From the NCBI RefSeq assembly GCF_003334815.1, contig NZ_QOWO01000016.1: a stretch of 64,000 nucleotides of DNA; one strand, given 5' to 3'. This DNA comes from Escherichia coli. Lineage in GTDB: Bacteria; Pseudomonadota; Gammaproteobacteria; Enterobacterales; Enterobacteriaceae. The position numbers and the translations under genes are program-made. The notes beneath the pieces are model-generated. The model made no database searches. It was given only the letters and a program-made list of their open reading frames with translations, and was not told where the DNA came from. Below are positions 12,717-54,129 of this stretch, one piece after another. Position 1 is the stretch's first letter; each line of letters opens with the position of its first letter.

Positions 12717-13940
12717 ATGGCGCTGTCTGATGCGTGGTTGCGTTCAGTCGTTGGAAAGGAACGTGATAAGGTTTTGGTTAAATCCGATCGTGATGGTCTG
12801 TCTGTCAGAGTATCACCGAAAGGTCGCGTAGTGTTCCAATATCGTTATCAATGGGCAGGGAAAGGTGAGCGTCTTGATATCGGAACTTACCCGGCAACTG
12901 GATTAAAAGAGGCCAGAGAAGAAGTTATCCGTCTCCGTGGTGAACTTGAGTCAAACCGTAATCCACGATTGGTCAAGCAGGCTGAAAAACGAAAAGCTAC
13001 TGAAGCCATGACGGTAGAGTCTGTGATCCGTGCCTGGTATGAAGCATATTGTGTAAAAAATAAAAAAGGTTCTGAACAGATACTCCGCTCGTTTGAGCTG
13101 CACCTGTTCTCTAAAATCGGGAATATCCCTCACGATGCAGCTACATTGCATGATTGGTTAGAAGTCCTGGAGCCTCTTAGCACTAAGACTCCAGCAATAG
13201 CAGACCGATTGCTAATTAACGCAAAGCAGGCCCATGTCTGGGCGTATAAGAGAAAGCTCATTGAAACTCGCCCGCTGTCGGATATCACGGGTAAAGATAT
13301 GGATATCCGTAAAGGTCAGAAGAAACGGTTTCTGACACATGATGAAATTAAAATCCTTTATGCTGCGATCGATGGTTCTCGAATGGTTCCTAAATACCGG
13401 GCCTTCATTAAGCTATTGCTGCATTTTGGCTGCCGTAGTTCAGAGCTAATTACTGCCAGGGTGGACGATTTTGATTTCATTAATAAGGTATGGACTGTAC
13501 CACCAGAACGACATAAGACTGGAGAGATAACAGGCGAACCGCTAAAGAGGCCCATTATTGAACCGGTGGAGGAGCTTATAAAGAACGCTATCTCTATGAA
13601 CAATGGTTCCGATATGCTTTTTACTAAGGAAGGAAGCAGGGAACCCGTTGGTCGAACATCATTGCAGTCGCTGCCTTACAATTTAATGCAGTACGCATGG
13701 AGGCGTTTGGGGCATCAATTCCCTCATTGGTCTCTTCATGATTTGAGGCGAACAGCACGAACAAACTTTTCTGATCTTACTGCTCCTCATATTGCAGAAA
13801 TAATGCTCGGCCATAAACTGCCAGGGGTTTGGCAGGTTTATGACAAGAGCGATTATCTAGAAGAACAGCGTAAAGCATATCAGGCATGGTGGGAGAGAGT
13901 TGAATCGATCGTTACTTGTACTGGCCCAGAATCTACCTGA
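12717..13940 (+). CDS. int: Tyrosine integrase, P4-type
   Basis: 407 aa. The N-terminal arm-binding domain pattern is (DGLSVRVSPKGRVVFQYRY). Catalytic residues are R (GCRSSEL), H-x-x-R (HDLRRTART) and Y (VYDKSDY). Confidence 0.92.
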   Translation: MALSDAWLRSVVGKERDKVLVKSDRDGLSVRVSPKGRVVFQYRYQWAGKGERLDIGTYPATGLKEAREEVIRLRGELESNRNPRLVKQAEKRKATEAMTVESVIRAWYEAYCVKNKKGSEQILRSFELHLFSKIGNIPHDAATLHDWLEVLEPLSTKTPAIADRLLINAKQAHVWAYKRKLIETRPLSDITGKDMDIRKGQKKRFLTHDEIKILYAAIDGSRMVPKYRAFIKLLLHFGCRSSELITARVDDFDFINKVWTVPPERHKTGEITGEPLKRPIIEPVEELIKNAISMNNGSDMLFTKEGSREPVGRTSLQSLPYNLMQYAWRRLGHQFPHWSLHDLRRTARTNFSDLTAPHIAEIMLGHKLPGVWQVYDKSDYLEEQRKAYQAWWERVESIVTCTGPEST

Positions 13941-14190
13941 CAGCTTGCGTAGCCCTGACAGTCTGTTTTGAGCGAACAGTGGACATTTTCAATGGCATTC
14001 TTGAGTAGGTTACGCTTAGACCAGAAGTAAGAGGTGATAGAATTATCAACAATACATAAAACATAGGGGATCCTTATTGATTTATTGATCTTGACCAACT
14101 TATGTGATGCAGTATGTCTTTAACTTGTATTACTATTATCTTTATCTTGTTGTTTCTAATAAACTTATCTTATTTCAGAAAGGAGTTTTT

Positions 14191-15891
14191 ATGCATTTAG
14201 TCACGAAATCTTATTTCGATGCCTTTTGCAAAGCATTCGCTGCGCCCTATGAGGAGACCAAAAATTTTGAGGCGTTTGTGAACTATTGTGCTTTTTCAAA
14301 ATACTCAGGCGACAAAGTTGAGGTCAGTGATCTTGTGTATGAAGGCCCGGACCCTGGTATTGATGGCGCATTTTTATTTTTAGACGACAGAGCAATTTTT
14401 TCAACTGAAGAACTTCAGGAGATTTTCCAAAACTCACGTCGCGAGTTTCAAGTTTCATTAATATTCACGCAAGCTAAGTCATCGGAGAAGTGGAGCAAAC
14501 AGGAAATAGACTCTTACATTGCGTCAATAAGAGATTATCTTTCACCAGCGCCACAACAACCCCACAGTGAATATCTAGCGGACTTTAAAAAAATGTTCAA
14601 CTTGATATTTGCTAATATCGGCAGAGTCAAAAATGGCCTTCCAGACTTATACGCATATTTTTTTAGTGCTGCACAAAATACAGAGGCCAGAGAAATAAAA
14701 GCTGCATTTGCATCGGGTGAAAAAAGCTTAAAGTCACTCGGGTTTTCACATGAAACATCCTTCATTATGGCTCACAAAGACATGATTCATGAGCTTTGGC
14801 TTGCTGCGGAAGGTCCAATAGAAGCTAAACTTCCTACAATAGGCTATGCTCCATTCCCAGCGGCCCCTAATATTAATAATGCCTATGTAGCTACAGTCAA
14901 AGCTCGTAGTTTTATTGATTCTATACTTAAAGACAAAAATGGAAACCCTCGAAAAAAATTATTCGAAGAAAATGTTAGAGATTTTCTGGGAATTGATGGT
15001 GACGTAAATTCAGAAATTGCAGGAACACTAGATACTGATGGAAAAAAAGCAAGATTTGGTTTAATGAATAATGGAGTGACAATAGTTGCATCAAGCGTGA
15101 GGCCTGCAGGACAAGAAATTTTTATACGAGATTTTCAAATTGTTAATGGATGTCAAACGTCTAATGTTCTTATATCAAAAGACATTCAAGTAGATGAATC
15201 AGTTAGTTTAATGATTAAATTAATTGAAACCGATGAGCCAGCGATCCTTGATGACATTGTACGAGCTACGAATAGACAATCTAAAGTTGAAGATGCACAG
15301 TTCATTTCAACGCTAAAAAAATTAAGGGAATTAGAGCATTATTTTAATGCTAAAGGTGCTATTGAAGGAAATAAAATTTATTTTGAGAGAAGAAAGGGGC
15401 AGTATAGTTCAGAAAGTATAGCTCCAGTACGCATATTTGATATCAGAGAAGTTGCGCGAGCATATGCTGCTATTGTTATGATGAGACCAGATTATTCCAG
15501 TCGTTATCCAAATAGGTTAACTGGTGACTTACTTAATGAGGTTTTCTCTTCCGATGCCCTCGAGGATGATTATTATATATCTTGCTATTGCTTGTATAGG
15601 CTAAAGGCTCTTATCTCAAATAAGAGGTTTGATGGGAAGTATTCAAAATTACGCTGGCATATTCTAACTGCTGCGTCAAAATACTGTGGTAATAATTATA
15701 AGGTTTGGGGGTTCAAAAATAAAAATGAAGCTCTTCATAACTTATTCTCAATGAATGATGGGGAGTGGTTTGAAAAACTTGAGAGTTTAGTAAAAATAGC
15801 TATACCAGATCCGGATATTTCTCGAGACTTACTAAAGTCGCAGCCTTTAACATCAACGATTCTCAAAAGTGTTGATAGCGTACCTAAATAA
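14191..15891 (+). CDS. AIPR-family (abortive infection phage resistance) protein, putative
   Basis: 566 aa from the ATG preceded by aaaggag. The central ..NNGVTIVA..FQIVNGCQTS.. matches my memory of the AIPR family signature. It is very AT-rich relative to the flanks and is followed by the hairpin gggaagc-ttatt-gcttccc. Confidence 0.6.
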   Translation: MHLVTKSYFDAFCKAFAAPYEETKNFEAFVNYCAFSKYSGDKVEVSDLVYEGPDPGIDGAFLFLDDRAIFSTEELQEIFQNSRREFQVSLIFTQAKSSEKWSKQEIDSYIASIRDYLSPAPQQPHSEYLADFKKMFNLIFANIGRVKNGLPDLYAYFFSAAQNTEAREIKAAFASGEKSLKSLGFSHETSFIMAHKDMIHELWLAAEGPIEAKLPTIGYAPFPAAPNINNAYVATVKARSFIDSILKDKNGNPRKKLFEENVRDFLGIDGDVNSEIAGTLDTDGKKARFGLMNNGVTIVASSVRPAGQEIFIRDFQIVNGCQTSNVLISKDIQVDESVSLMIKLIETDEPAILDDIVRATNRQSKVEDAQFISTLKKLRELEHYFNAKGAIEGNKIYFERRKGQYSSESIAPVRIFDIREVARAYAAIVMMRPDYSSRYPNRLTGDLLNEVFSSDALEDDYYISCYCLYRLKALISNKRFDGKYSKLRWHILTAASKYCGNNYKVWGFKNKNEALHNLFSMNDGEWFEKLESLVKIAIPDPDISRDLLKSQPLTSTILKSVDSVPK

Positions 15892-20296: not shown

Positions 20297-20923
20297 CTAG
20301 AGTTCGTATTGAACTCCTTTGACTACACCAATGATCAGGCAATTACCATTGATCGGGATGTTGGGATACCGGGGATTCAATGGTACTAAAAACTTTTGAT
20401 GACCATCGATGACTAATTTTTTTACTGTAGCTTCGTTCGTTCCATCAAGTCGAGCAATGACTATTTTTCCATGACGGGGTTCTGCATCAGGATCTACAAT
20501 CACTGTTGCACCTTCTGGTATTGTTGGGAGGCCATTAGGGTTAGTCATGGAGTCGCCTTTAACTTCTAATGCAAATGAGTTATCACCAATCTTTAAAGAT
20601 GTATCTACCCACTTGTCCACTTCACTAAACACTTCTGCTGCCCTGCACTCAGTAAACTGCCCAGCCTGAACCCACGAAATTACAGGAACTCTGCGCATGT
20701 TTGTGACGAGTTTGCCTTCAAACTCAGCACCATAAAGAATGTAATCTATTGACGTATTAAAGAACTTCGCTAATTTCGAAAGTGCTTCCCCGCCAGGGAC
20801 ATTGATGTCTTTTTCCCAGTACCCCACAGCAACGTCACTTACCCCACAAAATTTACCCAATTCTTTCTGGGACGTTCTGGTAACCCTTCTCAGAGCTTTT
20901 ATACGCTGACCAACCGTTTCCAT
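20297..20923 (-). CDS. cI: CI-like repressor (XRE HTH plus S24 LexA-type autopeptidase)
   Basis: 208 aa with HTH TSQKELGKFCGVSDVAVGYWE, an Ala-Gly site (VQAGQF), Ser (GDSM) and Lys (TVKKL). Confidence 0.9.
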   Translation of the reverse strand: METVGQRIKALRRVTRTSQKELGKFCGVSDVAVGYWEKDINVPGGEALSKLAKFFNTSIDYILYGAEFEGKLVTNMRRVPVISWVQAGQFTECRAAEVFSEVDKWVDTSLKIGDNSFALEVKGDSMTNPNGLPTIPEGATVIVDPDAEPRHGKIVIARLDGTNEATVKKLVIDGHQKFLVPLNPRYPNIPINGNCLIIGVVKGVQYEL

Positions 20924-48371: not shown

Positions 48372-48815
48372 ATGAATAAAGTTAAAAGTGTTTACAGCCC
48401 GTCCGAAAATGCAATCTACAACGCAGCGCTATATGAAAGTTATATCAAGGAGGGGACATGGCCGCAGGATGGTATTGAAATCAGCGATGAGGATGCTGTC
48501 AGATTTAATGGGGGAAATAAGCCAACAGGAAAAATGCTGGGAATGGTTTCAGGGACCCTTGCATGGGTTGATGAGCCGCCGCTTTCACCAGAACAGAAAA
48601 TATCAGATGCAGAAAACATGAAAGCCACATTTCGTGCAAAAGCTGACAGTGAAATATCCTGGCGTCAGGATGCTGTTGATGCTGGTATCGCAACTGATGA
48701 AGAAACTTCAACTCTCACCCAATGGAAGAAATACCGTGTGCTGCTGATGCGTGTTGATACTTCAACAGCACCCGATATTGAATGGCCTACGCCTCCGGCA
48801 GTCCAGGCCAGATGA
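48372..48815 (+). CDS. Tail fibre assembly chaperone (Tfa), currently expressed orientation
   Basis: 147 aa with the C-terminus ...YRVLLMRVDTSTAPDIEWPTPP. Confidence 0.8.
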   Translation: MNKVKSVYSPSENAIYNAALYESYIKEGTWPQDGIEISDEDAVRFNGGNKPTGKMLGMVSGTLAWVDEPPLSPEQKISDAENMKATFRAKADSEISWRQDAVDAGIATDEETSTLTQWKKYRVLLMRVDTSTAPDIEWPTPPAVQAR

Positions 48816-49389
48816 CGTCCGGCGCTGTGCTGGTATCTGTTGCCGTCACCGCGTCAATGTAATCCAGCACGGCGTTAAGTCGGGTTGTTTCTGCCGGCGT
48901 CAACTTCCGTCCGGCCTGTAATTTCAACTGAATCAGACTGATGGAAGCCATTGCAGCATCAATCAGATACTGGCGCTGTGCTTCTGCCGCTTCTACTGCG
49001 GCGCTATGCTGTGCCTCAGTATCCGTCACCCATTTCTCACCATCCCATTTATCGTATGGCGTTAATGGGGCGATAGTGGTTGTATTATCAGGGTAATCAC
49101 CCGGAGCTGTGATTTCTTTGGCGTCTCCCGTTTCGGTGCTATAGACAATTTCACCACGATGGTCTGACACATATTCCCATGATTTTAAATCCATAGAACG
49201 GCAGATAGCATAACCCGCCTTATATGTGCCAGGTTCATCCAGACAGGAATATGCAGGGATACCGACACCAATGGCAAGATATTCATTTGAAGTAGAAATA
49301 TATTCCCGAGTTTTACCATCATAGTTATAGACGGTAATATTCCCCGCCTTCGTGGCAATAAGCTCGCTATTTAATACGGCGTTATCCAT
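48787..49389 (-). CDS. Alternative tail fibre assembly chaperone (silent orientation)
   Basis: 200 aa with the C-terminus ...DAVTATDTSTAPDVIWPGLPEA. Confidence 0.8.
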   Translation of the reverse strand: MDNAVLNSELIATKAGNITVYNYDGKTREYISTSNEYLAIGVGIPAYSCLDEPGTYKAGYAICRSMDLKSWEYVSDHRGEIVYSTETGDAKEITAPGDYPDNTTTIAPLTPYDKWDGEKWVTDTEAQHSAAVEAAEAQRQYLIDAAMASISLIQLKLQAGRKLTPAETTRLNAVLDYIDAVTATDTSTAPDVIWPGLPEA

Positions 49390-49868
49390 TATGCAGCCCT
49401 CACGATATAGTTAAATGCAATATTTCGTGGACGGGTTTCACTCCCGCCAGTATTACCGATACTCCCTCGTGAATGAAGTGTCGGTGATGGGATCAGACTC
49501 CCTCCTGTATTTGTGGCATCAAGTCCCCGTCCTTGTGTGTATGTCTTTTTGAAAATCGTAGCCAGTTCCCATTCATCTTTTGTGTCGTAACCATCATTGG
49601 CAACAACAATATGGCGGTGTTTTTCCAGCATCCCTGTCTGAATGCTCAATAAAACACGTCCTGCATCAATACCGCGCCCGTCATCCCAGCCACGAATAAA
49701 CTCACCACGTAAATCAGGCAATTTATTTGTCGGATAAGCCTTTGCCAGTTCCGGGTATTCTTCAGCAGAAAAAGCCGCACCGTTGCATTTCAGCCAGCCT
49801 GTTGGCGGTGTGGCTGAAGGCCATGGAACAGGCACACCAACAGGTAATGCAGAGCCTTCTCCCAAACC
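49389..49868 (-). CDS. Alternative tail-fibre C-terminal cassette (promoterless, collar-domain type)
   Basis: Reads GLGEGSALPVGVPVPWPS...GWLKCNGAAFSAEEYPELAKAY...LPDLRGEFIRGW from the recombination site. It has no start of its own. Confidence 0.75.
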   Translation of the reverse strand, partial: GLGEGSALPVGVPVPWPSATPPTGWLKCNGAAFSAEEYPELAKAYPTNKLPDLRGEFIRGWDDGRGIDAGRVLLSIQTGMLEKHRHIVVANDGYDTKDEWELATIFKKTYTQGRGLDATNTGGSLIPSPTLHSRGSIGNTGGSETRPRNIAFNYIVRAA

Positions 49869-49882
49869 AACGTTTATGAAAA
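49857..49882. repeat. Invertase crossover site, right (inverted relative to the left site)
   Basis: TTCTCCCAAACC-AA-CGTTTATGAAAA. The first 14 nt are identical to the reverse complement of the left site. Confidence 0.75.
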
Positions 49883-49936
49883 TGCAGAAATAACGAGCAA
49901 ATGGCATCATTCCTGCTTTTGTCAGGGAGATCTACT

Positions 49937-50491
49937 ATGCTTATTGGCTATGTACGTGTGTCAACAAATGACCAGAACACAGATCTACAACGTAATGCGC
50001 TGAACTGTGCAGGATGCGAGCTGATTTTTGAAGACAAGATAAGCGGTACAAAGTCCGAAAGGCCGGGACTGAAAAAACTGCTCAGGACATTATCGGCAGG
50101 TGACACTCTGGTTGTCTGGAAGCTGGATCGGCTGGGGCGTAGTATGCGGCATCTGGTCATTCTGGTTGAGGAGTTGCGCGAACGTGGCGTTAATTTTCGC
50201 AGCCTGACGGATGCTATTGATACCAGCACACCGATGGGGCGTTTTTTCTTTCATGTGATGGGTGCCCTGGCTGAAATGGAACGAGAACTGATTGTTGAAC
50301 GAACAAAAGCTGGACTGGAAGCTGCTCGCGCACAGGGACGAATTGGGGGACGTCGTCCCAAACTTACACCAGAACAATGGGCGCAGGCCGGGCGATTAAT
50401 TGCATCAGGCGTTCCTCGCCAGAAGGTGGCGATCATCTATGATGTTGGTGTATCGACACTGTATAAGAAGTTTCCGGTCGGAGATAAATGA
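49937..50491 (+). CDS. pin: Serine DNA invertase (Pin/Gin/Cin/Hin family)
   Basis: 184 aa from MLIGYVRVSTNDQNTDLQRNAL with a C-terminal HTH. Confidence 0.93.
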   Translation: MLIGYVRVSTNDQNTDLQRNALNCAGCELIFEDKISGTKSERPGLKKLLRTLSAGDTLVVWKLDRLGRSMRHLVILVEELRERGVNFRSLTDAIDTSTPMGRFFFHVMGALAEMERELIVERTKAGLEAARAQGRIGGRRPKLTPEQWAQAGRLIASGVPRQKVAIIYDVGVSTLYKKFPVGDK

Positions 50492-50590
50492 AACCGCAGG
50501 CTCGTCGTATGCAAGAAAGTGCTGCGGCTGGCTGGTTAACTTCCGATAGTGAGAGTATTGAATGATTTCCAGTCGTTATCGATTTTACGT
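50489..50590. repeat. Direct repeat copy 1 (~102 bp)
   Basis: tgaaaccgcaggctcgtcgtatgcaag...gattttacgt. By my hand count it differs at about 7 positions from 53774-53875. It contains the hairpin ccgcag..ctgcgg. Confidence 0.85.
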
Positions 50591-50849
50591 ATTTTTTGCA
50601 TGAGATGATTTGAACGCCCTAGCACCAACCGTTCATGATTGCACGCCACTGTCTCTAGAACTGCTATGAGCATGAAGCCGCTGTTCAAACTAAGAATTTA
50701 TATGGCACTAACAGAAAAAATGTTACATATATGTTGAGCTTTAACGCAACATAGACATGTTCTATAGTTTGTGTCTCACCACCAGTTGAAAAAAAACGAA
50801 AATAGATTAACAATGTTCAGAAGAAACCTTCATAATAGAAGAGGTATAA

Positions 50850-51104
50850 ATGGGTAAGATTATTCGGTGGATGCTTTTTTTTGTCGGATTATTTTCCGTT
50901 GCATATTCAATATATAAATATCAACAATCTCCGCAGAGTTTATTTTACATAATCGGTGCTATAGGAACACTTTTATCTGCTACATGTGGTTTACTTGAGA
51001 TAAAAAGCAAGAAATCGAATGGCAGTATAACTGCTGGCGACAACTCAAATATCGTTGTCATTAATGGTTCAGAAAACACATCAAAAATAAAAAATAGAGG
51101 GTGA
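50850..51104 (+). CDS. Small 2-TM membrane protein with a hydrophilic GDNSN-motif tail (unknown function)
   Basis: 84 aa with SD gaggt and two hydrophobic helices. The tail is ...ITAGDNSNIVVINGSENTSKIKNRG. Very AT-rich. Confidence 0.6.
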   Translation: MGKIIRWMLFFVGLFSVAYSIYKYQQSPQSLFYIIGAIGTLLSATCGLLEIKSKKSNGSITAGDNSNIVVINGSENTSKIKNRG

Positions 51105-51106
51105 TT

Positions 51107-52042
51107 ATGTTTGATAAAGAGGTTAACTTAGGAGACAACTCAAACGTAGTAAAAACAGAAGGGAATAACAACACAACAATAATAAATAATTTTGATGAGA
51201 AGTTTATAGGTCACGTTGTAAGATCCATGCTTTATGAAAGTATGCCTTCCTTTCAAGAAGAAGCTAGAAAAAAGATAATTGCGTCAACTGATGAATACAT
51301 TAGAGAGCTAATATCTGAGTTAGTAATTCAAAAAACAGATGCAGATACATTAAACCAAAAACTATCAACGCCTGACGTTCAATACTCTCTTTTTGAATCA
51401 GCTAAATGTTTTGCAAAAAATCCAGAAAGAACAGCAAAATCAACTCTGTTAAATTTAGTTGTAAAAAAAATAAATGAATTGGATGGAGATCATGAAGAGC
51501 TTTCCTCTATCGATCTGGCAATAAACGTCGCTACAAAACTTAGCGTAAAGCAAATAAGGTATATATCTTTAATATACTATATTAAAGATATTGTAAAAAT
51601 ATCACAAGATAGTGCCGGCGCTTATTGCATAATAGATCCTTCAAAAGATACAACAGAAGAAGTTGACGATTTCTTTTTATTCCCAAATGATATAAAAAGG
51701 AACAAGCAGGATGTTTATGATCTTTATATCGATCTATATAACAATCAAATGGATGTTGTATTTAAAGATGAAGAGATTGGCCCAGTTGATTATAGTATGC
51801 TTATAGCATTGGGTTGTATCATTCAACCTGCATTCCCTCAGCGAACATTTGTACAAAATGTAAAGAAAAGAACAGGATTAGATTTAAACGACAGCGAACA
51901 AAAATTAAAGCTATCGACATTCATTGAGAAAATAGAAAAAGCTATAGAGATAGATTCTGTCGATTATATAGTATTAACTACGGTTGGTAGACAAATAGCT
52001 AACGCCTATATATCAACAAGAATGAGATTAGTTAACTTATAA
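51107..52042 (+). CDS. Uncharacterised 311-aa cytoplasmic protein, coupled to the 84-aa ORF
   Basis: ATG at 51107 (or GTG 51101, overlapping the upstream TGA). The N-terminus is ..VNLGDNSNVVKTEGNNNTTIINN. I see no catalytic motif I can recognise. Very AT-rich. Confidence 0.6.
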   Translation: MFDKEVNLGDNSNVVKTEGNNNTTIINNFDEKFIGHVVRSMLYESMPSFQEEARKKIIASTDEYIRELISELVIQKTDADTLNQKLSTPDVQYSLFESAKCFAKNPERTAKSTLLNLVVKKINELDGDHEELSSIDLAINVATKLSVKQIRYISLIYYIKDIVKISQDSAGAYCIIDPSKDTTEEVDDFFLFPNDIKRNKQDVYDLYIDLYNNQMDVVFKDEEIGPVDYSMLIALGCIIQPAFPQRTFVQNVKKRTGLDLNDSEQKLKLSTFIEKIEKAIEIDSVDYIVLTTVGRQIANAYISTRMRLVNL

Positions 52043-52103: not shown

Positions 52104-52265
52104 TTAAGAGTAGTGAACAAACCACTCGTCAGCAAACTCCCAAGTATCTTTCAGAGTCTCCTGAACAAAAGCCTTAGCAGAATCCTTATCTGCGGTGTAC
52201 GTAACAGGAAAATCATCGCTATGGTAGCTTTGACGCTCACCCCCATACCATAAAATATCAAGAGA
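52104..52265 (-). pseudogene. dinI-like remnant (C-terminal part only, no start codon)
   Basis: The minus frame reads ...[37 protein letters not shown]. About 100 nt are roughly 90 percent identical (hand count) to the 3' end of the intact copy at 53881-54129. Confidence 0.8.
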
Positions 52266-52445
52266 TTACGACTCATTTCCCCATGACTCTTCACCAACCA
52301 ACAGTTCTATCAACATAAGATGTAAACTCATAAACTAAGCAAGATAAAAAAATTAACAGAATTTTGTTGATTTCATGTCTGTGGAGTGTTAACTTAAAAT
52401 GAGACCTGAAGTACTGAAGGTCTTTGACACACTGGAGAAGCAACT

Positions 52446-52805
52446 ATGTTAACGCCGTTTGGTAAGACAGTAAGAAAAATGCGCATAGACTTGGGGCTTA
52501 CGCTTAAAAGCATGGCTGAGGCTATGGGCATGACCTCGTCTTATCTTTCAGCGATCGAAACTGGTAAAAGGGCGGTCACTAAGCCCGTGCTTGATAGCAT
52601 CATTAGCTATTTTAATGCGGATGAAAAACAAAAAGAAAAGCTTATCAGTGCAGCTCGTGACTCTCAGCAGTCAGTAGAGATCAGCTTGTCAGGTAAGAAT
52701 GGCCACGCTCGTGAAGTCGCAATTGCGTTCGCTCGTAGTTTTGATGAATTAAATGAAGAAGACTTCCGTAATTTACGACAGATTTTGAATCGAAAACAGC
52801 AGTAG
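52446..52805 (+). CDS. XRE-family HTH regulator
   Basis: 119 aa with FGKTVRKMRIDLGLTLKSMAEAMGMTSSYLSAIETGKR. The direct repeat ctgaag-ta-ctgaag lies at 52406-52419 upstream. Confidence 0.8.
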   Translation: MLTPFGKTVRKMRIDLGLTLKSMAEAMGMTSSYLSAIETGKRAVTKPVLDSIISYFNADEKQKEKLISAARDSQQSVEISLSGKNGHAREVAIAFARSFDELNEEDFRNLRQILNRKQQ

Positions 52806-52813
52806 GAGGCGGC

Positions 52814-53335
52814 TTGAGCGGACAAGATTATCGTGTACCTCCGCAGAATCGTGAATCAATACGTTCTATCGTCACATCTCTGCGGAGCGCATTTGGTATT
52901 ACTGGGCTTAAATTCCCTGTAATGGAGGTAATTGAGTTCGCATTGCCTCAGTTGATCCCGGATTTTGAGTTCCACATTGGTGGCATGAAAGAAATGGGAG
53001 AAACGCATGGTCTTACGTACCCACAGGAACATTTATTGATTCTGCGCGAAGACATTTACGAAGGCGCTTTGAATGGGGTAGGGCGAGATAGGATGACTGC
53101 CGCGCATGAATTGGGTCATCTTCTTATGCACAGGAACATCGCATTTGCTCGTTCTGCCCCAGGGGTAAAAATCCGCCCTTTTGAGAGTAGTGAATGGCAA
53201 GCTAAATGTTTTAGTGGTGAGTTATTAGTGCCGGCTATGCATGTCAGTATTTTAAAAGGTATGACGGCTGAGGATGTTGCTAAGGCATGCGGAGTTTCAT
53301 TAGTGGCAGCGCGTTATCAGCTAGACAGAATGTAA
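52814..53335 (+). CDS. ImmA/IrrE-family zinc metallopeptidase
   Basis: 173 aa with a TTG start, the HEXXH motif AAHELGHLLMH, and pairing with an upstream XRE gene. Confidence 0.75.
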   Translation: MSGQDYRVPPQNRESIRSIVTSLRSAFGITGLKFPVMEVIEFALPQLIPDFEFHIGGMKEMGETHGLTYPQEHLLILREDIYEGALNGVGRDRMTAAHELGHLLMHRNIAFARSAPGVKIRPFESSEWQAKCFSGELLVPAMHVSILKGMTAEDVAKACGVSLVAARYQLDRM

Positions 53336-53338
53336 AAA

Positions 53339-53373
53339 CCCCTTGCTTGGCGCCAACCAGTGCAAGGGGCTTT
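53339..53373 (+). terminator. Hairpin / putative terminator after the ImmA gene
   Basis: ccccttgc...gcaagggg, an 8-bp stem with a weak T tract. Confidence 0.45.
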
Positions 53374-53492
53374 AGGTGATGAATCCAAGAGGCATCACCA
53401 CCGTGAACAGCTTCGATAGACAGCCTGAAATTAACACCTTCAGGGAAGATGTTCAAGGGAAAAATCTCTCTTGGTAAGGAGGTGTTTTATGA

Positions 53493-53642
53493 ATGGGTTT
53501 GAAATCAATTGCTTCAAAAGCGGCGCCCAAAGGGTTCCGTTGGGTTTTCTGCCGTTACCGCAAGGTGCGTGGGAAATCAAAAAAAGTCCTTGATGCTCAT
53601 GATTACGGGTACGAGGCGTGGGCATTTTTAGTGCGCTGCTAA
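53493..53642 (+). CDS. Unannotated 49-aa basic ORF
   Basis: taaggagg SD, then MGLKSIASKAAPKGFRWVFCRYRKVRGKSKKVLDAHDYGYEAWAFLVRC*, followed by a strong terminator. It is below the ORF-track size cut-off. Confidence 0.5.
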   Translation: MGLKSIASKAAPKGFRWVFCRYRKVRGKSKKVLDAHDYGYEAWAFLVRC

Positions 53643-53655
53643 GGGTTAGTATTTA

Positions 53656-53680
53656 AGGCACCTGCGGGTGCCTTTTTTGT
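53656..53680 (+). terminator. Rho-independent terminator
   Basis: aaggcacc-tgcg-ggtgcctt followed by ttttg. Confidence 0.8.
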
Positions 53681-53773: not shown

Positions 53774-53875
53774 TGAAACCGCAGGCACGTCGTATGCAAG
53801 AACGTGCTGCGGCTGGCTGGTGAACTTCCGATAGTGCGAGTATTGAATGATTTCCAGCCGTTACAGATTTTACGT
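53774..53875. repeat. Direct repeat copy 2 (~102 bp), abutting the dinI-like stop codon
   Basis: See 50489-50590. Confidence 0.85.
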
Positions 53876-53880
53876 GCTAA

Positions 53881-54129
53881 TTAGTGAACAAACCACTCGT
53901 CAGCAGACTCCCAGGTATCTTTCAGAGTTTCCTGAACAAAAGTTTTAGCTGAATCTTTATCGGCGGTGCGCGTAACAGAAAGGCCATCGTTGCTGGTGGC
54001 TTTTACGATCACCTCTACATCGTCATAACGCTTACTGATGCGTCGAGTTAATTCTTCCTTTAACGCATCCACAGCACCGTTTGGCATTTTAGTCATTTTC
54101 TCTTTAGCTATGCAGATCTCAATACGCAT
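53881..54129 (-). CDS. dinI: DinI-family SOS-inducible protein
   Basis: 82 aa, [11 protein letters not shown]...[23 protein letters not shown], with LexA boxes in its promoter. Confidence 0.85.

Follow-up and report, generated by a model that had tools for sequence, protein, structure and literature searches.

Within the 64,000-nucleotide (nt) stretch of Escherichia coli DNA analyzed here, referred to as the window, a gene for an XRE-family helix-turn-helix (HTH) protein is followed by a gene for an ImmA/IrrE-type (M78) metallopeptidase. These two genes and a third one downstream, which encodes a protein of 49 amino acids (aa) designated S, form one conserved mobile unit that was overlooked in an earlier note on this DNA. 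The unit is 1.4 kb long and consists, in order, of an operator, a 5' hairpin, the HTH gene, the peptidase gene, a 157-nt spacer, and the 49-aa open reading frame (ORF) with its terminator. It is proposed, with about even confidence, that the unit is an autorepressed, protease-triggered operon that has S as its output and a pseudoknotted leader that sets the translation of S.

A mobile unit of three genes

The earlier note described a 119-aa XRE HTH protein and, 8 bp further on, a 173-aa protein with an HEXXH motif. Both ORFs and the gap of 8 bp were confirmed, and the products were matched by the Pfam families HTH_31 and HTH_3 and by Peptidase_M78, respectively. The genes and signals of the unit are as follows.

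52305..53677, plus strand: whole mobile unit, comprising promoter/operator, HTH gene, M78 peptidase gene, structured spacer, 49-aa gene and terminator.
52352..52371, no strand assigned: candidate operator, the palindrome ATTAACAGAATTTTGTTGAT; its right half overlaps the -35 element and its position is conserved among loci.
52367..52395, plus strand: predicted promoter; -35 TTGATT at 52367-52372, 17-nt spacer, TG-extended -10 TAACTT at 52390-52395.
52402..52423, plus strand: putative 5'-terminal mRNA stem-loop; AGACCT at 52402-52407 and AGGTCT at 52418-52423, with ctgaag-ta-ctgaag as the interior.
52446..52805, plus strand: gene of the XRE-family HTH repressor, 119 aa; HTH_31 E 9e-11, HTH_3 E 2e-10.
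52814..53335, plus strand: gene of a stand-alone M78 (ImmA-like) zinc peptidase, 173 aa, TTG start; Peptidase_M78 E 5e-9.
53493..53642, plus strand: S gene, 49 aa, basic and aromatic-rich; PHROG 33859 E 1.5e-26.
53655..53680, plus strand: intrinsic terminator closing the unit; 8-pair stem and T run.

The boundaries of the unit were defined by alignment with a diverged, 89%-identical copy (L002). The homologous stretch starts at 52305 and ends at 53677, at the terminator. The segment 52300-53700 was present in 13 of 5426 complete E. coli genomes, in two contexts. Copies of 99-99.8% identity are found at prfC-proximal prophage ends; one of them, in E. coli 510016, belongs to a lambdoid prophage in which the cargo beside the unit is an IS1-disrupted reverse transcriptase and SLATT pair and differs from the module of an 84-aa and a 313-aa protein found in the window. 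The 89%-identical version has yejO on one side and, on the other, the integrase of an unrelated prophage; no other cargo accompanies it there. It also occurs in phage Phi06_2987. Within E. coli, the unit travels without the adjoining cargo.

The ratio of non-synonymous to synonymous divergence (dN/dS) from the diverged copy was 0.076 for the HTH gene, 0.049 for the peptidase gene and 0.046 for the S gene. All three genes are thus under strong purifying selection (0.05-0.08), contrary to the suggestion that the pair is a relic of another mobile element. The S gene differs from the diverged copy by 13 synonymous and 3 non-synonymous changes; this dN/dS and the match to PHROG 33859 establish the 49-aa ORF as a real gene. 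The synonymous divergence (dS) between the window and L002 is uneven, being 0.14 for the HTH gene (52446-52805 vs. 9145-9504 of L002), 0.68 for the peptidase gene and 0.58 for S. The four- to fivefold lower value for the HTH gene suggests that the 5' part was recently exchanged or that the nucleotide sequence itself is constrained. Two natural variants were also noted: in strain ECONIH4 (L003, 9513-9896) the peptidase is shortened to 127 aa, and in E. coli WP5-S17-ESBL-11 (hit H9) the match stops within the S gene (query 1240, window position 53539).

Gene order was analyzed by ORF clustering of 173 loci containing S. An M78-family gene lies directly 5' of S in 119 of them, an HTH-family gene being present too in 109, and no common gene family was found beyond HTH-M78-S on either side. 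A further 160 loci, in Gamma-, Beta- and Alphaproteobacteria and a few other phyla, came from scans of one genome per species and of IMG/VR. Where S is more distant (57-80% identity), the order HTH, M78, S is found again, with a gap of about 150-185 nt, on contigs that include a phage contig and a high-GC chromosome. In the reverse test, which started from peptidase relatives in IMG/VR, S was found about 150 nt 3' of the gene in 13 of 15 that are at least 41% identical and in 15 of 34 that are 27-40% identical. Because the order is kept both from S to peptidase and from peptidase to S while the flanks vary, the three genes are a single inherited mobile unit and the adjoining cargo lies outside it. 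The neighborhoods of homologues had been named in the earlier note as a means of deciding among several roles for the pair. Their conserved linkage to S, amid otherwise variable flanks, fits one of these roles, the regulation of the 49-aa ORF downstream.

The possibility was considered that the pair is a two-gene Xre-COG2856 toxin-antitoxin system, in which the peptidase is the toxin, the HTH protein the antitoxin and autorepressor, and the 49-aa gene an unrelated passenger. Xre-COG2856 pairs have been predicted to be type II toxin-antitoxin systems and were studied as such in Brucella; the adjacent Xre and COG2856 genes here are likewise on mobile, prophage DNA, and both proteins gave weak NCBIfam antitoxin-type matches. 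However, S and this peptidase subfamily are inherited together, whichever of the two is taken as the starting point, and S is under equal purifying selection, and the homology in the second context includes S and stops at its terminator. Moreover, there is no M78 member with a demonstrated toxic target, the characterized ones cleaving or binding a partner repressor. A toxin-antitoxin pair with a passenger gene is therefore considered unlikely.

The S protein has a net charge of +9 and abundant conserved aromatic residues, and is predicted to form a small four-stranded beta sheet (AlphaFold2 pLDDT 90.7). When its relatives were grouped at 90% identity, 28 clusters resulted; grouping at 50% identity among 1.84 billion proteins gave 89, and every relative is short and stand-alone. 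No domain fusions were found among the 89 clusters, the sole long match being a repetitive protein aligned over 16 residues. The exact S sequence occurs on 873 contigs, while close variants were found in Klebsiella on at least 1000 and also in Citrobacter and Yersinia. S is named "hypothetical protein" in its sources. It is unannotated in the RefSeq entry of strain 510016, where the identical neighboring genes are annotated as "helix-turn-helix domain-containing protein" and "ImmA/IrrE family metallo-endopeptidase". Other small proteins, DUF2188 and DUF3892, have been tied to HTH/peptidase operons in the literature; S belongs to neither family. A Pfam scan of 28 S homologues at E ≤ 5 returned only noise.

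The structured leader of the S gene

The earlier note also reported a hairpin following the pair. The hairpin is real, and it is the first element (P1) of a conserved structured leader that the note missed. The 157-nt spacer between the peptidase and S is 94% identical to that of L002, even though the dS of the flanking genes is about 0.6. The elements, all on the plus strand, are listed below, with SD denoting the Shine-Dalgarno sequence.

53339..53369: P1, hairpin after the peptidase stop codon (RNAfold); hexaloop CGCCAA, weak U tract (three-U tail).
53368..53498: structured leader of the S gene; sole match of covariance model R1 in the window, 133 bits.
53375-53381 with 53393-53399: P2, with a purine-rich, SD-like loop at 53382-53392.
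53404-53408 with 53451-53455: P4, from alignment pair counts.
53424-53429 with 53439-53444: P3, loop AUUAACACC, from alignment pair counts.
53385-53392 (CCAAGAGG) with 53467-53474 (UCUCUUGG): pseudoknot, from covariation.
53464..53483: alternative hairpin; AUCUCU at 53464-53469 with the SD segment GGAGGU at 53478-53483, from the RNAalifold consensus.
53476-53484: AAGGAGGUG, a perfect SD ahead of S.

A P1-type hairpin follows the upstream stop codon in every locus examined, and its loop is C-N-S-CAA in the distant loci L004, L006, L017, L053, L054 and L079. A second hairpin, P2, is likewise present in each locus. The loop of P2 is complementary to a pyrimidine tract located 2-8 nt 5' of the perfect SD, UAAGGAGGUG. 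The structure formed by P2, P4, P3 and the pseudoknot was evaluated in a plain MAFFT alignment of 18 enterobacterial and Vibrio sequences (A2). In this alignment 82% of the cells are paired, compared with 35-49% when the partners are slid, changes on both sides were found in 19 of 25 pairs, and none of 500 shuffles reached the observed values. The covariance model R1, which was built without the pseudoknot, also matched directly 5' of S in about 20 further loci outside the seed, some of which lack the peptidase (L074, L075, L087). In the alignment of 43 sequences derived from R1 (A3), the pseudoknot is 85.5% paired and 7 of its 8 pairs change on both sides. Across the leader alignments, 82-93% of the cells are paired vs. 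35-57% with slid partners. When the pseudoknot helix was compared with shuffles locus by locus, the signal was weak (21 of 89 loci at p ≤ 0.05), helices of 7-8 bp being common by chance; the support for the pseudoknot comes from its fixed position and covariation, not from helix length. The complementary segments vary widely from locus to locus, as listed here.

Window: P2 loop segment CCAAGAGG, tract before the SD UCUCUUGG.
L024: P2 loop segment CCGGGAGGA, tract before the SD UCCUCCCGG.
L149: P2 loop segment AACAGCGG, tract before the SD CCGCUGUU.
L148: P2 loop segment UGGAGCC, tract before the SD GGCUCCA.
L087: P2 loop segment CCCGAAG, tract before the SD CUUCGGG.

A second leader subtype, associated with other upstream partners, has the form GGAAUGG-[purine internal loop]-CCCAC...GUGGAUUCC and follows the same pairing principle, with 90.5% of the cells paired and double changes in 5 of 7 pairs. 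In loci of the other subtype (L041, L046, L050, L095) the P1 loop was seen to be AUUGGCG, the reverse complement of the loop found in the window. P1 may be simply a terminator, or it may serve as a protein site or a recombination junction.

The alternative hairpin, which would sequester part of the SD, and the pseudoknot duplex are mutually exclusive, with RNAfold energies of -7.3 and -11.2 kcal/mol, respectively. Because the pyrimidine tract can pair either with the P2 loop or with the SD, the leader can be described as an arrangement of SD mimic, anti-SD and SD. A pairing of the P3 loop (UUAACACC) with the 3' part of the SD was rejected: it involves only invariant CACC/GGUG pairs with no co-variation, and mismatches beyond 4 bp occur in L004, L021 and L022, so that it stands as a bare possibility. 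No Rfam family matched the leader at E ≤ 1 in the window and eight other loci of both subtypes. By the alignments, the leader is a well-supported structured RNA and a candidate new family. At the start of S, the sequence AUGAAUG (53489-53495) contains an out-of-frame AUG 4 nt 5' of the S start codon and nearer the SD. Most of the enterobacterial and Vibrio loci share the arrangement AUGnAUG (or AUGnGUG); the alternative frame is open for 34 codons, and its protein is not conserved.

A candidate proteolytic switch

In most of 60 non-redundant loci, the sequence about 95 nt 5' of the HTH start codon is a palindrome with the pattern T(C/T)AAC-N8-GTT(G/A)A. Its right half is the -35 hexamer (TTGATT or TTGACA), which is followed after 17-18 nt by a -10-like hexamer, and this register is conserved; it was found in L004, L020, L023, L026, L120, L122, L126 and L130. 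The promoter at 52367-52395 was absent from the list produced by a consensus scan and was assigned by comparison between loci. Transcription is predicted to start near 52402, where the inverted repeat AGACCT/AGGTCT begins. The pairing of this repeat is kept in L002 by a double compensatory change (AGACCC/GGGTCT), and in most loci the position is occupied by a hairpin whose sequence is unrelated. These observations suggest that 52402-52423 is the 5'-terminal stem-loop of the operon mRNA. The direct repeat ctgaag-ta-ctgaag to which the earlier note drew attention is indeed present at 52406-52419, but it is not conserved in the 89%-identical copy and is without significance except as the interior of the inverted repeat.

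The operator pattern occurs once in the window. No second copy was found in the 64 kb, including 50.6-50.85 kb, the promoters of the neighboring cargo and the spacer before S; therefore, there is no evident repressor site at the neighboring-cargo promoters or in the S spacer. A sigma-70 promoter inside the spacer was found neither by consensus scan nor by conservation in enterobacterial spacers. The suggestion that the pair regulates the two-gene cargo upstream was not upheld, given the single operator and the occurrence of the unit elsewhere beside different cargo or none, and the unit does not control the neighboring cargo.

The HTH_31/HTH_3 match covers residues 5-63 of the 119-residue repressor, and the C-terminal half is conserved too. 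This half contains the motif I93-A94-F95-A96-R97-S98, whose F, A and R are each present in 80% or more of the 60 homologues compared. The peptidase carries the sequence AAHELGHLLMH (HELGH 98-102, i.e., H98-E99-x-x-H102), E127, and a loop I109-A110-F111-A112-R113-S114; the hexapeptide IAFARS is identical in the C-terminal half of the repressor and in the peptidase loop. The nearest solved relative of the peptidase is CapP (7t5t, 291 aa; E 0.012), the similarity being confined to catalytic core residues 81-141. In the HMMER alignment, A110-F111-A112-R113-S114 corresponds to S-F-Q-C113-S of CapP, with R113 in the column of Cys113. In CapP this segment is the "cysteine-switch loop", which covers the active site at the place where the substrate binds. 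No cysteine was found at the aligned position in the present peptidase family. The loop keeps an Arg and shows a loose parallel with the repressor motif (FSR/FHR, LAR/LSR or LNR, FAS/LHY). The known cleavage sites, between F82 and R83 in CapH, L106 and R107 in DdrO, and F95 and M96 in ImmR (127 aa), are at positions comparable to that of the FAR motif of the repressor. We infer that the repressor is probably cut at or beside the FAR/IAFARS motif and that the AFARS loop of the peptidase may serve as a pseudo-substrate lock.

CapP and IrrE each contain a linker and a GAF domain, which bind activating single-stranded DNA (ssDNA). Both are missing from ImmA (169 aa), which ssDNA does not stimulate. 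Since a GAF domain is absent and the protein is only 173 aa long, the predicted architecture of the peptidase is ImmA-like. By analogy with ImmA, and given that the part of IrrE that binds ssDNA is the GAF region, activation by ssDNA is unlikely here.

In the proposed switch, a dimer of the XRE protein would bind the palindrome and repress its own operon, and the ImmA-like peptidase would be kept inactive by its substrate-like AFARS loop, the counterpart of the cysteine-switch loop of CapP. A trigger, such as phage infection or DNA damage, would free the peptidase, and the repressor would then be cut at or beside the identical AFARS motif in its C-terminal domain. The operon would be derepressed and the small basic protein S would be made as the output of the switch. 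The pseudoknotted leader would set the level of S translation, the likeliest mode, by analogy with S15 and S4, being autogenous control in which S binds its own leader. In E. coli, rpsO (S15) and the alpha operon (S4) have pseudoknotted translational operators with two alternative leader folds. Like these operators, the predicted pseudoknot abuts the SD of a gene for a small basic protein and the leader has alternative folds. Unlike them, S is not a ribosomal protein, the extra helices P1, P3 and P4 and the arrangement of SD mimic, anti-SD and SD are present, and binding of S to the leader is only proposed.

Several observations weigh against this proposal. The co-variation of the peptidase loop with the repressor motif is loose, and for Rir, a relative among M78 proteins, inhibition of its repressor is not accompanied by detectable cleavage. 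Searches with S gave no homologue or fold match whose function is known, and calling it an effector is for this reason a guess. The pseudoknot could turn S translation either on or off, and in L009, L051 and L063 P1 looks like a strong terminator, so that S may have a separate promoter there. Furthermore, S and its leader also follow genes for TIR, STAND, AAA_21 ATPase and DUF4411 proteins, a class II ribonucleotide reductase and two Pfam-less families; because S and the leader follow such unrelated genes, S may not depend strictly on this repressor and peptidase and could be a cassette that follows rules of its own.

Taken to its conclusion, the last point becomes an explanation of its own, that the leader and S are an independent cis-regulated cassette joined repeatedly 3' of other genes, while the XRE/M78 pair is self-regulating and functionally separate. 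At least eight unrelated gene families precede S and its leader with the same, constant spacing of about 150 nt, R1 finds the leader 5' of S in loci without the peptidase, and P1 is a good terminator in some loci. However, about two-thirds of the S loci have the pair and nearly all close relatives of the peptidase carry S; in addition, the enterobacterial spacer has no conserved sigma-70 promoter and the tail of P1 in the window has only three U residues. A functional separation of the pair from S is accordingly given a low probability.

Some of the other partners were recorded individually. The Pfam-less family c2 (175-210 aa) takes the place of HTH and M78 upstream of S in 28 loci, including L035, L041, L046, L050, L051, L056 and L156-L175, and in L156-L158 it directly follows the prophage cI. 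A second Pfam-less family, c35 (240-263 aa), does so in 4 loci. The N-terminal domain of c35 is similar to that of the CAP12/Pycsar-type TIR protein upstream of S in L007 and L008. A C-terminal domain shared by the HTH protein, c2 and c35, which would make them antitoxin-like binders of S, was rejected on hhalign probabilities below 1%. In five loci from Competibacteraceae and Xanthomonas, S and its leader adjoin a gene for a class II-type ribonucleotide reductase (719-850 aa), with S downstream in L074, L075 and L081 and upstream in L042 and L043, and with no HTH or peptidase gene.

A wider reading is put forward tentatively, as possible rather than probable. S and its pseudoknotted leader may be a new autonomous RNA-plus-protein cassette, in which a small nucleic-acid-binding effector, with its translation gated by the SD mimic, anti-SD and SD, is the common output or partner of diverse sensors. 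As part of the same tentative reading, the sensors would include the XRE/ImmA protease switch, TIR and STAND proteins, ABC-type ATPases and the two uncharacterized families. If this is true, the window contains a stress- or phage-responsive system, carried by a prophage, of a class not described before, and with it a new family of cis-regulatory RNAs.

Judged from the sequence, ImmR/ImmA of ICEBs1 from Bacillus subtilis, with the related repressor/anti-repressor protease pairs of phages, is the known system closest in architecture to the proposed autorepressed operon. Both have an XRE repressor, a co-directional stand-alone M78 peptidase that lacks a GAF domain (169 vs. 173 aa) and a third gene. 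In ImmR/ImmA the promoter is autoregulated by the repressor, and the candidate palindrome over the -35 element suggests the same here. The cleavage site F95-M96 of the 127-aa ImmR is at the same relative place as F95-A96-R97 of the 119-aa protein. Unlike in ICEBs1, the third gene encodes a 49-aa protein with a structured leader and not an integrase, there is no divergent excision/transfer promoter, the hosts are Proteobacteria, and the life cycle of the carrier prophages is not switched by the unit. That the unit is nevertheless an ImmR/ImmA-type switch of a mobile element, with S as a small excisionase, antirepressor or similar control factor, would fit its likeness to immR-immA-int and its frequent location in prophages, beside the integrase or after cI. 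However, the host prophages have their own complete cI/cro switches. In the window, cI with an S24 domain is at 20297-20923 and is accompanied by a cII-like gene, in agreement with the statement of the earlier note that the pair is not the immunity module of the prophage. Moreover, L006 and L013 are in chromosomal surroundings with no element genes within 4-6 kb, and no integrase, excisionase or transfer gene was conserved beside the unit among the compared loci, in which the flanks are unrelated from locus to locus. S is also unlike any known excisionase or antirepressor. A life-cycle role is very unlikely.

Other prophages carry the unit, or S with a different partner, directly downstream of cI. 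Lambda carries rexAB just downstream of its cI. The positions of the unit at prophage ends and directly after cI, where lambda has rexAB, suggest an accessory function expressed in the lysogen, such as exclusion or defense.

The best matches in defense libraries and the PDB are to CapH/CapP and to DdrO/IrrE of Deinococcus. The HTH protein matched PADLOC capH over its full length (E 3.6e-10) and the peptidase matched capP (E 4.9e-11) over profile positions 56-147 of 242. The shared features are an HTH and a C-terminal domain with a hydrophobic-Arg cleavage motif, for which FAR is the candidate here, and a loop following HExxH, which lies over the active site in CapP and aligns with AFARS. The analogy with CapH/CapP drawn in the earlier note thus holds as far as the XRE/ImmA-IrrE-type module is concerned, but not beyond. 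The three-domain build of CapP (peptidase, HTH-like linker and GAF; 291 vs. 173 aa) is absent, the switch loop has no cysteine (a Cys switch is found in a third of CapP proteins), and, whereas CapH/CapP genes lie upstream of the immune operon on the opposite strand, the genes here are co-directional with S, there is no conserved divergent operon, and the output is one small gene within the same operon. That the pair is a CapH/CapP-type regulator tying the neighboring defense cargo (the 84-aa and 313-aa proteins, 50850-52042) to DNA damage, as these matches and its place inside a cargo hotspot between invertase and dinI might suggest, is highly improbable, since the window holds no second operator (50.6-50.85 kb included), the unit is found with different cargo or none, the cargo is co-directional and parted from it by a terminator-like hairpin and a dinI fragment where known genes are upstream and divergent, and the linker and GAF domains for ssDNA sensing are absent.

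Two defense systems that also combine an XRE HTH, an M78 module and a further component, RosmerTA (the toxin RmrT and RmrA) and PD-lambda-2, were compared as well. The HTH protein and the peptidase gave weak, partial PADLOC matches to RmrA. Unlike in the present unit, with its separate ORFs of 119 and 173 aa, RmrA is a fused HTH-M78 protein of about 360-400 aa, and neither S nor any neighboring ORF matched a PADLOC model, RmrT included. PD-lambda-2 (Vassallo et al.) was rejected as this system because it has a HigB-like first gene and a P4-antitoxin-like third gene.

To our knowledge, pairs of M78 peptidases and XRE repressors are common on bacterial mobile DNA, and the switched output of most is not known. 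Here the output would be a single small gene with a clear operator, promoter and terminator, within 1.4 kb in E. coli and directly testable. The identity of IAFARS in the substrate and the enzyme loop offers a concrete pseudo-substrate model of how ImmA-type peptidases lacking a GAF domain may be kept off, and the leader RNA and the often-unannotated S are candidate new families in prophage-host or phage-phage conflict. In the literature, the RefSeq accessions of the HTH protein and the peptidase appeared in no paper, the key terms were combined in none, and no description was found of an obligatory third gene, a structured leader or an identical substrate-like peptidase loop.

Surroundings of the unit in the prophage

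The prophage in the window also carries an integrase (12717-13940), a terminase and a tail sheath. The upstream cargo at 50850-52042 is a separate module, consisting of an 84-aa predicted membrane protein followed by the 313-aa protein, which matches the NCBIfam LPO_1073/Vpar_1526 family (E 3.4e-24) and PHROG 19542. The module has its own promoter-like sites at 50741-50836. Both cargo modules are bracketed by direct repeats, 50489-50590 with 53774-53875 and 52111-52218 with 53882-53989 (93% and 87% identical, respectively). The second pair consists of a 3' dinI fragment and an intact dinI-like gene (53881-54129); this dinI fragment also precedes the unit in E. coli 510016. The repeats look like the scar of recombination between prophages with different cargo at the same hotspot.

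A second cargo site is located at the other end of the prophage, where a gene for a 595-aa protein of the abortive infection phage resistance (AIPR) family (14104-15891) lies just after the integrase. Just upstream of the cargo hotspot, a Hin/Gin-type invertase gene (49901-50491; Resolvase and HTH_7) stands beside oppositely oriented ORFs for a tail-fibre C-terminal part and for tail-fibre assembly, and 48787-50491 forms an invertible host-range segment.

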